From Octopus vulgaris (taxonomy: Eukaryota): 64,000 nt of DNA. The stretch lies in the NCBI GenBank assembly GCA_951406725.2, contig OX597837.1, forward strand, positions 496,001 to 560,000, given 5' to 3'. This document shows positions 12,648 to 56,907 of this stretch, in pieces. The position numbers were made by a program, and so were the translations under genes. Within the stretch, counting starts at the first letter, position 1. Each line of letters starts with the position of its first letter. Below the pieces are notes generated by a model. The model did no database searches, was not told the origin of the DNA, and saw only the letters and a list, made by a program, of their open reading frames with translations.

Positions 12648-12711
12648 GTTCCAGATCACCTGTGATTTCGCAATTAACGTATTATCTACGTCTTTTGCTC
12701 TTCAGTGAAAC
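12648..12711 (-). ncRNA. Type I hammerhead ribozyme, canonical core
   Basis: gtttca CTGAAGA GCAA..ACGTA...TACGT..TTGC GAAA TCAC ag GTGA TC tggaac; AUC triplet. Confidence 0.85.
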
Positions 12712-13801: not shown

Positions 13802-13834
<33 letters not shown>

Positions 13835-14097
13835 CAATTAAGGACAACTACTTAATAAGGAAAACTTAACAAGAAATTGTCAGGTAGATAGCGTAAAAAC
13901 CTCATAAGAGAAAAAATTTCGAAAATAATTATTTCTTATTGAACATATTAATTTATATATAGAGGGCATTATACATACATGCCAGAAGGCATTATACATA
14001 CATGCCAAACGCTAAGAGGGACAATTAGTCATTTCTACCAAAAATATTACTAATCCCACCGAATGCAATTTTTCAAAGTAAGACATTTAAAAAATAT

Positions 14098-14145
14098 AGA
14101 CCTGTATCACAGTGATTTCATACTTACGTACTCATCAGCAGGCCT
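14098..14145 (-). ncRNA. Type I hammerhead ribozyme (identical copies at 14578-14625 and 15058-15105)
   Basis: aggcctg CTGATGA GTAC gtaa GTAT GAAA TCAC t GTGA TA caggtct. Confidence 0.85.
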
Positions 14146-15287
14146 GAATGCATTATAAATAAACAACGACCCTGCCCCGCTTAAGTCGATCAGCTAACTG
14201 TTCAACATCAACGAAGCACATGGGTGAGTTTACATATATTACATCCGGTCAAATGGCAAACTTTTACGAATTGCATTTCGGGAGAGGAAAAGTTTTTTCG
14301 GAATAAAAATTTAGCAATTAAGGACAACTACTTAATAAGGAAAACTTAACAAGAAATTGTCAGGTAGATAGCGTAAAAACCTCATAAGAGAAAAAATTTC
14401 GAAAATAATTATTTCTTATTGAACATATTAATTTATATATAGAGGGCATTATACATACATGCCAGAAGGCATTATACATACATGCCAAACGCTAAGAGGG
14501 ACAATTAGTCATTTCTACCAAAAATATTACTAATCCCACCGAATGCAATTTTTCAAAGTAAGACATTTAAAAAATATAGACCTGTATCACAGTGATTTCA
14601 TACTTACGTACTCATCAGCAGGCCTGAATGCATTATAAATAAACAACGACCCTGCCCCGCTTAAGTCGATCAGCTAACTGTTCAACATCAACGAAGCACA
14701 TGGGTGAGTTTACATATATTACATCCGGTCAAATGGCAAACTTTTACGAATTGCATTTCGGGAGAGGAAAAGTTTTTTCGGAATAAAAATTTAGCAATTA
14801 AGGACAACTACTTAATAAGGAAAACTTAACAAGAAATTGTCAGGTAGATAGCGTAAAAACCTCATAAGAGAAAAAATTTCGAAAATAATTATTTCTTATT
14901 GAACATATTAATTTATATATAGAGGGCATTATACATACATGCCAGAAGGCATTATACATACATGCCAAACGCTAAGAGGGACAATTAGTCATTTCTACCA
15001 AAAATATTACTAATCCCACCGAATGCAATTTTTCAAAGTAAGACATTTAAAAAATATAGACCTGTATCACAGTGATTTCATACTTACGTACTCATCAGCA
15101 GGCCTGAATGCATTATAAATAAACTTTTATTCCGAAAAAACTTTTCCTCTCCCGAAATGCAATTCGTAAAAGTTTGCCATTTGACCGGATGTAATATATG
15201 TAAACTCACCCATGTGCTTCGTTGATGTTGAACAGTTAGCTGATCGACTTAAGCGGGGCAGGGTCGTTGTTTATTTATAATGCATTC

Positions 15288-15335
15288 AGGCCTGCTGATG
15301 AGTACGTAAGTATGAAATCACTGTGATACAGGTCT
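15288..15335 (+). ncRNA. Type I hammerhead ribozyme (identical copies at 15767-15814, 16247-16294, 16727-16774)
   Basis: 7-bp stem I aggcctg/caggtct, CUGAUGA core, stem II with GUAA tetraloop, GAAA, stem III, AUA triplet; predicted cut after 15328. Confidence 0.85.
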
Positions 15336-16907
15336 ATATTTTTTAAATGTCTTACTTTGAAAAATTGCATTCGGTGGGATTAGTAATATTTTTGGTAGAA
15401 ATGACTAATTGTCCCTCTTAGCGTTTGGCATGTATGTATAATGCCTTCTGGCATGTATGTATAATGCCCTCTATATATAAATTAATATGTTCAATAAGAA
15501 ATAATTATTTTCGAAATTTTTCTCTTATGAGGTTTTTACGCTATCTACCTGACAATTTCTTGTTAAGTTTTCCTTATTAAGTAGTTGTCCTTAATTGCTA
15601 AATTTTTATTCCGAAAAAACTTTTCCTCTCCCGAAATGCAATTCGTAAAAGTTTGCCATTTGACCGGATGTAATATATGTAAACTCACCCATGTGCTTCG
15701 TTGATGTTGAACAGTTAGCTGATCGACTTAAGCGGGGCAGGGTCGTTGTTTATTTATAATGCATTCAGGCCTGCTGATGAGTACGTAAGTATGAAATCAC
15801 TGTGATACAGGTCTATATTTTTTAAATGTCTTACTTTGAAAAATTGCATTCGGTGGGATTAGTAATATTTTTGGTAGAAATGACTAATTGTCCCTCTTAG
15901 CGTTTGGCATGTATGTATAATGCCTTCTGGCATGTATGTATAATGCCCTCTATATATAAATTAATATGTTCAATAAGAAATAATTATTTTCGAAATTTTT
16001 TCTCTTATGAGGTTTTTACGCTATCTACCTGACAATTTCTTGTTAAGTTTTCCTTATTAAGTAGTTGTCCTTAATTGCTAAATTTTTATTCCGAAAAAAC
16101 TTTTCCTCTCCCGAAATGCAATTCGTAAAAGTTTGCCATTTGACCGGATGTAATATATGTAAACTCACCCATGTGCTTCGTTGATGTTGAACAGTTAGCT
16201 GATCGACTTAAGCGGGGCAGGGTCGTTGTTTATTTATAATGCATTCAGGCCTGCTGATGAGTACGTAAGTATGAAATCACTGTGATACAGGTCTATATTT
16301 TTTAAATGTCTTACTTTGAAAAATTGCATTCGGTGGGATTAGTAATATTTTTGGTAGAAATGACTAATTGTCCCTCTTAGCGTTTGGCATGTATGTATAA
16401 TGCCTTCTGGCATGTATGTATAATGCCCTCTATATATAAATTAATATGTTCAATAAGAAATAATTATTTTCGAAATTTTTTCTCTTATGAGGTTTTTACG
16501 CTATCTACCTGACAATTTCTTGTTAAGTTTTCCTTATTAAGTAGTTGTCCTTAATTGCTAAATTTTTATTCCGAAAAAACTTTTCCTCTCCCGAAATGCA
16601 ATTCGTAAAAGTTTGCCATTTGACCGGATGTAATATATGTAAACTCACCCATGTGCTTCGTTGATGTTGAACAGTTAGATGATCGACTTAAGCGGGGCAG
16701 GGTCGTTGTTTATTTATAATGCATTCAGGCCTGCTGATGAGTACGTAAGTATGAAATCACTGTGATACAGGTCTATATTTTTTAAATGTCTTACTTTGAA
16801 AAATTGCATTCGGTGGGATTAGTAATATTTTTGGTAGAAATGACTAATTGTCCCTCTTAGCGTTTGGCATGTATGTATAATGCCTTCTGGCATGTATGTA
16901 TAATGCC

Positions 16908-16974
<67 letters not shown>

Positions 16975-27706: not shown

Positions 27707-27764
<58 letters not shown>

Positions 27765-27769
<5 letters not shown>

Positions 27770-28100
27770 TGCAGCGTGGAAGGTGTTTATAAGCCATTTA
27801 AGAAACACACAACAGCCGTTCGATTCACTCCAACATTTAAGTTTAATTTGTCAAAATATTTTCGTCGCTAAAATCCGCGACCTGTTCACTGACAAAAATC
27901 CGTGCTGCACGGATTTTTGTCAGTGAACAGGTCGCGGATTTTAGCGACGAAAATATTTTGACAAATTAAACTTAAATGTTGGAGTGAATCGAACGGCTGT
28001 TGTGTGTTTCTTAAATGGCTTATAAACACCTTCCACGCTGCAATTGTTTTCGTTTCAGCACACAATCTCAGATCAAATTACTTGCTATGCGAGTACATCT

Positions 28101-28102
<2 letters not shown>
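27765..28102. mobile_element. TA-flanked fold-back element: perfect 141-bp palindrome (centre 27906) plus 55-bp extension
   Basis: 27765-27905 is the reverse complement of 27907-28047. Confidence 0.9.
27916..27965 (+). ncRNA. HHR variant with G3:C8 core (mirror copy at 27847-27896, minus)
   Basis: tttgtca GTGAACA g GTCGC ggatttta GCGAC GAAA ATAT TT tgacaaa. Confidence 0.65.
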
Positions 28103-28140
<38 letters not shown>

Positions 28141-28141
<1 letters not shown>

Positions 28142-30643
28142 CTGCTCAATCGAAGTCGACTCTCGGTTACTCGATGGATCAGTGTCCTCCAGTCAGTTCT
28201 ATCCTGGGCCGCTTCCTTCAGATTGGCCATGTCCATTCCGGTATCATTCTTGATGGTGTCAAGCCAGCGGGTTCTTGGCCGGCATCTTCCTCTCTTGCCA
28301 CTGACCATTCCGAGCATGATGTCCTTCTTCAGGGATTTTCTCCGCATAATATGACCGAAATATGTCAATCTATGCTCGGTGATTCTAGCGTCTAGGGACA
28401 GTTTCGGCCTGATTTCGTTAAGAACTTCTCCATTGGTGAGCCTCGCTGTCCATGGAATCCGTAAAAGTCTTCTCTAACTCCAAAGCTCGAATGCATTTAT
28501 TGTCTTATGGTCAGCTTTCTTTAGTGTCCAGGTCTCGCATCCATATTTTGCTACTGGGAAGACAATTGAATTCACCAATCTGCATTTGATAGTGAGTCTG
28601 ATGTCTCTACTCTTCCAGACCCTGCTCATGCTGACCATTGCCTCTCTGCCTAGTAGTATTCGACGTCTAATTTCTGGAGTGCAGTCACCATCTCGATTTA
28701 TTTTGGAGCCAAGGAAGATGAAATCATCAACCACTTCGATCTCTTCATTATCGATCTTGATACTGATGTTTGTTGTGGCTGCTGTTGACATGGTCTTCGT
28801 TTTCTTAACATTGAGGTACAGTCCAAATTTCTCACTCTCTTTCTTGACCAGCAGGACAAGATCCTCCAGATCCTTACTACTCTCCGCCAGCAGGGTTGTA
28901 TCGTCTGCATAGCGAAGGTTATTAATATTTCTTCCTCCAATCCTCACTCCAATGCTGCAATCCTCCAGGCCTGCATTCCTCATGACCTTTTCAGCGTATA
29001 TGTTGAAGGCTGCTGGTGACAGGATGCAACCTTGCCGGGTGCCTTTTCCAATCTCAAACCAATCAGTGTCGCCATATGCTGTCCGCACTGTAGCCTCTTG
29101 CTTTCGATAGAGTGATCTAATACGCTGGACAAGGTGTAAAGGTGTTCCCATTTCCTCCAGACATTTCCATAACTTGTCATGATCAATGCTGTCAAAGTCT
29201 TTGGAGTAATCGATGAAACATGTACAGCTTCTTTTGGTATTCTATTGCCCTTTCCATAATCCACCGTAGGTTGGCGATGTGATAGCGGGTGCCTCTTCCT
29301 TTGCTGAAACCAGCTTGCACCTCTGGCAATTCTCTCTCAATAGTTGTGTTCAGGCGTTTCTGGATGATTTTAAGGAGAATTTTGCTTACATGGGGGATCA
29401 GGGTGATGGTACGGTAGTTTGCGCAGTCCTTTTCTTTGGTATTGGGATGAAAACTGACCTCTTCCATTCCCTTGTCCACTTACAGGTTCACCGTATTCGT
29501 TGGCAAAGCGATGTTAGTGTTTTTGTTGGTATTGGCTTGTGTAATCTTAGTGGAATACCATCAGTACCTGGGGCTTTTCGGTTGGCCAGCTGTTTCATTA
29601 CCCATACCACCTCATCCTCCAGGATGTCTGGCTCCAGTTCCAGTTCCAGTGGCTTCTCTTCTGCATGTTCATCGAGGTTGTTCCCTGCGTACAACTGTTC
29701 AGTGTACTCTTTCCATCTTTTGCTAATCCCTTCTTGGTCATGCAGTTCTTCACCATTTCTCCCTCGGATGGTTGCTTGTCTGGCCATGAATGCTGTACGG
29801 GTCTTCTTTACATGTTGGTAAAGTTCTCTCATGTTCCCTTTCCTGTATGCCTCTTCTGCCCTTGCACATTCCTCATTCCAGTATTTCTCTTTGTCCTTCC
29901 TGGTGGCCTGTTGGAACATTGCATTCAGTCGCCGCACTTCATCCCTGCTTCTGGTCATCTTTGCTCTCCTTCTTTCTTCTGCTATTGCAATAGTCTCCTC
30001 CGAAATCCACTTTGCTGATCGTATGGGTTTCTTGTACAGTACATGTTTCTCTGCTGTTTCAACGACAATTTCCTTCACCTTCTCCCATATTTCTTCTGCT
30101 TCTTGATTCTCTTCGATGGCGAGCAGTTCGAAACGGTTTCTGATCTCAGCGGCATATGATGGACTGATCTTGTTGGTATCAAATTTCAGGCAAGCGGGTG
30201 GTCGCTTGACGCTGCAGAGTCGCATCTTGATCTTGGCAACCAGAACTTTATGGTCAGATTCACAGTCTGCCCCAGGGAACGTCTTCACAGCTTGGACTGA
30301 ACTCTTCCACTGTTGCTGACATAGGATGTAGTCGATTTGATTGCGGTACTGTCCACTTGGCGACGTCCAGGCGTATAGCCGTCTCCTTGGTTGCCGAAAC
30401 CAAGTATGTTTTGTTCTTGACAAAATTGGACCAGTCAGTCTCCTGCTTCATTCCGTTCTCCTAATCCAAATTTGCCAACAATGTCTGCTGCTGCCCTTTC
30501 TCCAATTTTGGCATTGAAATCTTCCAGAATATATACAATATCTGCTCGTGGTGTTTTCTCGATTGCTCCCTGAATTTCTGCATAGAATTGTTCAATCTCC
30601 TCTTCTTCGACGTCGGCATTCGGTGCGTAGATTTGTAGCAATG
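28141..30643 (-). mobile_element. RTE-clade LINE (APE C-terminal part plus RT), frameshifted
   Basis: EDFNAKIG, NQIDYIL, SDH, KAPGTDGIP, NYRTITL, QAGFSKGRGT, RQGCILSP, LRYADD across several frames. Confidence 0.92.
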
Positions 30644-56699: not shown

Positions 56700-56907
56700 G
56701 AAAGTGACCGCGTGTGTACCGTTGACGATTTTTTTCCCTCCGTCTTCCCTTCTCTGGATCTTTCCTTTTCCTATGTTTCTGACGAAGAGCTCCGCTCGAA
56801 ACGTAAAACCCTCCTTTCTCCCTTCCTTCCTGAGTGTCCAATAATACTATATTTGTTCCACGTCCTCGAGTTGTGTTTTCTCTTGGTGTTTTCATGTTTG
56901 GATTAAC
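56700..56907 (+). mobile_element. PLE pLTR remnant with intact minimal HHR (56775-56809)
   Basis: gttt CTGACGA a GAGC tcc GCTC GAAA CGTA aaac; TA-flanked; homologous to 16975-17185. Confidence 0.8.

Follow-up and report, generated by a model that had tools for sequence, protein, structure and literature searches.

Here we examined an inverted repeat lying in a (TA)n microsatellite within a 64,000-nucleotide stretch of the Octopus vulgaris genome (the window). The repeat arms (27765-27905 and 27907-28047) measure 141 nt each, are 100% complementary and are separated by a gap of 1 nt, which bears out the perfect 141-bp palindrome described in a first-pass annotation of the sequence. The features of the locus are collected in Table 1. 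The right (TA)n tract is adjoined by the 3' end of a broken non-LTR retrotransposon on the reverse strand (approximately 28142-30450), which retains AP endonuclease and reverse transcriptase (RT) frames and which we take to be RTE-like.

Table 1 Features of the inverted repeat and its flanks, in window positions.
Feature	Positions	Strand	Remarks
(TA)n target microsatellite, left	27727..27764	.	
Left arm, a short element-end copy, inverted and tail-less	27765..27906	-	3' end at the inner of two fixed 3' ends
Minimal type I hammerhead motif, left arm	27847..27896	-	Identical to the right-arm motif; G3 at 27889
Right arm with 55-nt tail, a short element-end copy	27907..28102	+	5' UTR, hammerhead, first ORF codons
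Minimal type I hammerhead motif, right arm	27916..27965	+	Stems, core, palindromic stem III, U17
Element RT-endonuclease ORF, first 29 codons (MAYKHLPRC...)	28015..28101	+	
Penelope-type tail	28048..28102	+	Forward copy only; such a tail is described in parts of PMC8557442 and PMC11167929
(TA)n target microsatellite, right	28103..28141	.	

Both arms contain a type I hammerhead layout, with stems I and II round a core, GAAA and a UH cleavage site. In the right arm, stem I has seven Watson-Crick pairs (27916-27922 with 27959-27965) and stem II has 5 bp (27931-27935 with 27944-27948), closed by G10.1-C11.1 (G27931-C27948). Positions are numbered here by the usual hammerhead scheme. The core GTGAACA occupies 27923-27929, placing G3 at 27923, C8 at 27928 and A9 at 27929, and stem II is followed by GAA (27949-27951), the palindromic AATATT (27952-27957) and U17 (27958). 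The first-pass annotation had claimed a full hammerhead topology with a swapped G3:C8 core. The swapped core was found as described, here and in the left arm on the reverse strand. The stems, GAAA, AATATT and U site also stand, and to them must be added an unpaired G (27930) between A9 and G10.1 that had been left out, a feature typical of Penelope hammerheads. Where the consensus core is CUGANGA, with C3:G8, the sequence here is GUGAACA; since the Watson-Crick pair at 3:8 is kept, we classify the motif as a variant rather than a consensus hammerhead.

In its pLTR context the motif has predicted stem pair probabilities of 0.68-1.0, and the 55-nt motif has a fold z of -3.4. A relaxed hammerhead descriptor allowing any Watson-Crick pair at 3:8 gave 12 matches in the real window and 0 in 100 Markov-shuffled 64-kb windows. 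Given the shuffled result and the z value, the motif is not a chance occurrence, and the folding predictions indicate that it likely still folds as a hammerhead with the pair flipped. An Rfam search at the locus (E<=5) gave no hammerhead match, only spurious miRNA matches below the gathering score. This is consistent with the suggestion that standard models miss the motif, although the test is a weak one, as canonical-core hammerheads elsewhere in the window were missed too.

The right arm and the following 55 nt define a young repeat family, with 1856 first-look candidates, 40 of which were scored, all at 97-100% identity. In longer copies the sequence continues upstream as an ORF encoding RT motifs together with a C-x3-C-x2-C linker and a GIY-YIG domain. 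The RT motifs, YVDD and DKSG, were identified by eye, and a Pfam scan of the element ORF gave no RT match; GIY-YIG was matched above the cut-off (PF01541, E 1.8e-5). One copy has an open frame of 1025 codons and is truncated at its 5' end (L061). The ORF that starts at the locus, 56 nt after the predicted cut site, continues in three full-length copies (L066, L067 and L078). Another copy (L201) has the complete pLTR-ORF-pLTR arrangement in direct tandem, with the sense motif at both ends, 4.26 kb apart, and a broken ORF, while L061, L063 and L064 are inverted copies. The nearest named protein is an Octopus vulgaris hypothetical protein at 59% identity. A PDB sequence search with the element ORF returned 0 matches, and among the sequencing-run records none matching the element was registered as RNA. 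Four contig sets of possible RNA origin were aligned to L067; such contigs carry no information on strand, ends or expression, and they form no part of the evidence here.

A single ORF with RT and with GIY-YIG at its C terminus, tandem pLTRs, an inverted 5'-truncated copy and a one-sided tail characterize the EN+ Penelope-like elements. All of these are found here, and judged by its sequence the carrier is a Penelope-like retroelement, which upholds the link drawn in the first-pass annotation to the minimal hammerheads of these elements. The linker preceding GIY-YIG, CQSNCAVC, fits CX2-5CxxC, by which the Neptune and Nematis linker is defined in the part of PMC8557442 concerned with it. By this linker the carrier is of the Neptune or Nematis type, an assignment that does not separate the two clades. 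The octopus element and the Neptune/Nematis elements of Craig et al. 2021 (PMC8557442, in part) further share the C-terminal position of GIY-YIG, inverted 5'-truncated copies, a tail and microsatellite targets.

We infer that the palindrome is an insertion product, consisting of two short copies of the element end placed head-to-head in (TA)n. Copies in this family have two fixed 3' ends approximately 55-59 nt apart: among 48 distinct copies examined, 32 have the tail and the short ones all end at the same inner site (16/16). An adjacent inverted copy is present at seven of the 30 best loci (L001, L004, L008, L011, L021, L022 and L028), with spacers of 1 to approximately 25 nt, and at three more an inverted copy lies a few hundred bases off; most family copies are single. 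The same asymmetry recurs at other loci, where the arms are imperfect and the spacers vary. A one-sided tail on inverted 5'-truncated copies is a published Penelope signature in the relevant part of PMC8557442, and the architecture of the palindrome is ordinary and already published for such elements. The arms are head-to-head, not head-to-tail as are the units of non-LTR retrozymes. In the mechanism we propose, the element protein would nick both (TA)n strands and reverse transcription would begin internally, close to the ORF start, at the two tail sites; reverse transcription of the Anolis element likewise begins internally in vitro. Each cDNA would then extend across the intact hammerhead as far as the cap, and the two, once joined at their far ends, would leave an exact inverted repeat with a one-sided tail. 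Elsewhere in the family, L080:1-1320 consists of at least 7 tandem units, each approximately 170-190 bp long and built from the family end piece; it is a retrozyme-like derivative that could permit dimer folding.

The first-pass annotation had proposed a natural covariant family and a genome-wide search with the arm. That search revealed GTGAACA as the family norm, together with the stems: among 60 copies drawn from two subfamilies, one young and one older, and chosen by similarity to queries that contain the core, G3 is present in 59 and C8 in 59, and relatives carry C3:G8. Comparison of the two subfamily majorities gave no difference at 42 core and stem positions and differences at 6/9 loop II positions (Fisher p 5e-6 against core and stem). 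Flank and ORF differ at 9/137 positions; this contrast rests on two subfamilies and is not significant for flank and ORF alone (p 0.085; pooled p 0.019). U4, G5, A6, A9, G12-A14 and A15.1-U16.1 are unchanged across both.

A sister family with approximately 55% RT identity has a C3:G8 motif at the homologous place, with the same extra G and with compensated stems (a G-C/A-U change in stem II and U-A/C-G in a shorter stem I). In every copy where its motif was found, C replaces the near-invariant A9 and stem III is non-palindromic. Seven sister-family loci (L105, L111, L116, L120, L128, L135 and L138) look active, with intact frames of approximately 1312 codons. In a metagenome contig (L169, 42% amino acid identity) the ORF is followed by a canonical minimal hammerhead with C3:G8. 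Since the sister family and this contig both have C3:G8, the G3:C8 pair appears derived and the fold conserved. G3:C8 would have replaced C3:G8 in this lineage and then been kept along with both stems. The comparison is confined to three lineages because the 20 related loci gave no further motif lineage: 14 carry the sister-family motif, five have an RT match with no motif in the scan, and L129 has no match. Some older copies have G3 with G8 (L073, L079 and L167) and others U4C (L075 and L081). Each of these changes was seen more than once, and the core-damaged older copies are possibly sub-lineages. With C9 in the sister family, and given the G3/G8 and U4C copies, catalysis may be only loosely held in the lineage.

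The ends of genomic copies point to the RNA from which they were made. Reverse-strand 5' ends joined to (TA)n, counted genome-wide in 23-nt windows, number 353 round position -58 relative to the cut, 31 round the cut and 30 at a downstream control, counts that are only roughly comparable because their anchors differ in length and degeneracy. Each locus was taken to contribute one reverse-strand row. No excess of 5' ends over the downstream control was found at the predicted cut (31 vs 30). Within the cut window, a hand count of the first 100 of 230 rows placed the ends of 24 of the 30 loci listed between -1 and +6, a modest pile-up that may represent a small cleaved fraction or pausing of RT at stem I. 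Seven exact joints of (TA)n to the cut site were identified. When 30 copies were chosen solely by sequence 3' of the cut, 16 had 5' ends 52-60 nt upstream of it, five were long and 0-1 ended at the cut, two more apparent short ends being indel artefacts. Because ends pile up upstream of the motif and not at the cut, most of the retrotransposed RNA appears to have been uncut.

An untemplated G precedes the A at -58 in 16/22 distinct copies compared to 10/88 at the next four positions (p 3e-8), the 22 including a few that are not independent (L079/L080, and both arms of one locus). Untemplated G in L1 insertions is potentially derived from the cap, according to the part of PMC9341517 that deals with it. 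The extra G at -58 suggests that the pLTR contains a transcription start 58 nt upstream of the cut and that the RNA is capped. The -58 site also resembles a splice acceptor, having a branch-point-like and pyrimidine-rich sequence before AG; the copies share no exon sequence before the extra G, and splicing is less likely here than a capped start. Uncut templates do not prove the motif inactive, since cut RNA may simply not be copied. As most copies appear to come from uncut RNA, the motif likely cuts slowly or only with help. This pattern agrees, by analogy, with the Anolis element, whose ribozyme needed protein and was dispensable for insertion in vitro.

Any cutting by the motif would depend on a partner. 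The first-pass annotation had suggested dimer-dependent cleavage from the palindromic stem III, as in minimal Penelope hammerheads, and the stem itself fits this idea. The large palindrome does not, because its two motifs are on opposite strands, and any transcript holds one sense and one antisense copy, and because a read-through RNA is predicted to be approximately 70 kcal/mol more stable as a long hairpin than in the hammerhead-constrained fold. It is thus very improbable that the palindrome is itself functional, its arms pairing into an active dimeric ribozyme at the locus, even with a stem III like that of the dimer-cleaving minimal hammerheads in the sections of PMC4209133 describing them; that most family copies are single speaks against it as well. 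The AAUAUU self-duplex alone is marginal (predicted -0.2 kcal/mol), and the dimer form, at a predicted -27.2 kcal/mol, is not the cofold minimum of -31.3 kcal/mol. Cleavage would need a second copy, from tandem pLTRs or in trans, pairing through AAUAUU, probably together with an element protein.

The closest published counterparts are the minimal type I motifs that metazoan Penelope-like elements carry in their pLTRs; these hammerheads have low activity as dimers (Cervera and de la Pena 2014, PMC4209133, here and below in part). Like these, the octopus motif lies in the pLTR of an RT-GIY-YIG element, has an extra nucleotide separating position 9 from 10.1, G10.1-C11.1, a palindromic stem III, paired copies on opposite strands, and U17, which is common there. 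Unlike them, it has G3:C8. In Fig. S3 of that paper, 53 of the 56 representatives have C3, three have U3 (two as U3:A8, one with G8) and 0 have G3. The extra nucleotide is G here and H in the published consensus, and the 7-bp stem I is longer than most. Natural U3:A8 hammerheads (Perreault et al. 2011, PMC3088659, in part; Schistosoma Cercyon elements, PMC4209133) likewise covary at the 3:8 tertiary pair. They keep a pyrimidine at 3 and a purine at 8, whereas G3:C8 flips to a purine at 3 and a pyrimidine at 8.

A second comparison is with PAc, the Poseidon element of Anolis carolinensis, which carries a hammerhead and a tail (Frangieh et al. 2024, PMC11167929, likewise in part). In PAc two internal RT start sites bound the tail and both target strands are extended; cleavage by its hammerhead needed protein, and hammerhead mutants were without effect on insertion in vitro. 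Both elements have a hammerhead that lies at the ORF start or immediately precedes it, two internal RT starts bounding a tail, AT-rich targets and an uncut main template. The octopus element differs in its zinc linker (Neptune/Nematis type), its 55-59 nt tail and an ORF beginning 56 nt after the cut. C3G/G8C is an engineered and partly active change in PAc, whereas G3:C8 is the natural state here. Engineered G3:C8 variants are described in the relevant parts of PMC11167929, PMC8495972 and PMC3884650, the last of which also hints at a G3.C17 trap. We treat the novelty of a natural G3:C8 pair as provisional. None was found in the literature searched, a scope outside of which lie several supplements and the Lunse, Weinberg and Breaker 2017 catalogue, reportedly the main one of Penelope hammerhead variants.

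The window contains further hammerheads. At 13832-16915, inside (TA)n, a 480-bp unit forms two head-to-tail arrays facing apart, in which a type I hammerhead with canonical C3:G8, a 7-bp stem I and a full stem III is present in seven units; the arrangement resembles a non-LTR retrozyme that has undergone an inversion in the Penelope style. Canonical-core minimal hammerheads with an extra A and a palindromic ACGT stem III occur at 56779 (+) and 17121 (-) in another repeat family, probably another Penelope-like end. At 12705 (-), a hammerhead-like motif combines a canonical core and a full stem III with a long loop II.

Taken as a whole, we consider it probable that the locus holds end copies of a Neptune/Nematis-type element, head-to-head in (TA)n, each with a minimal G3:C8 hammerhead that likely folds and likely cuts slowly or with help. 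A long perfect palindrome in TA repeats might instead suggest that a hammerhead look-alike arose by chance in a MITE, a fold-back DNA transposon or an assembly artefact. This is still less probable than a working palindrome, as the arms correspond to the 5' UTR and the beginning of the ORF in an RT-GIY-YIG element (L201 and L067 contradict such an origin), and the asymmetric layout recurs elsewhere with imperfect arms and variable spacers. The shuffled windows gave no descriptor match, and the sister family has compensated stems.

A more serious question is whether the motif is a dead or nearly dead fold kept for another job in the 5' UTR, such as protein binding, RT loading, translation control or an internal promoter, with G3:C8 tolerated because cutting would have ceased to matter. 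Most cDNAs did run through the intact motif, by the genome-wide end counts (353 vs 31 vs 30) and by the 0-1/30 copies that start at the cut. C9 has not kept the sister family from thriving, there are copies with G3.G8 and with U4C, and Anolis insertion in vitro was unaffected by hammerhead mutants (PMC11167929, in part). However, the 3:8 tertiary Watson-Crick pair is needed only in the active fold, and unless that fold is under selection a double change restoring the pair is difficult to account for; the other catalytic positions stayed unchanged in two subfamilies while loop II changed at 6/9. We regard a dead fold as unlikely. Our fuller reading, in which a naturally occurring G3:C8 hammerhead is active and has become fixed in thousands of copies of a living family, with capped, mostly uncut RNA and protein-gated cutting held until after reverse transcription, is itself tentative, and we place it somewhat short of an even chance.

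Hammerhead surveys fix C3:G8, or sometimes U3:A8, which leaves G3:C8 families invisible to them. A flip of this pair that is fixed in nature is evolutionary support for the 3:8 tertiary pair. The G3:C8 family, its C3:G8-but-C9 sister and a canonical relative also form a ready test set. Finally, the ends of copies provide a read-out, within the genome, of what hammerheads do for Penelope elements; in this family the RNA that was retrotransposed was apparently mostly capped and uncut.
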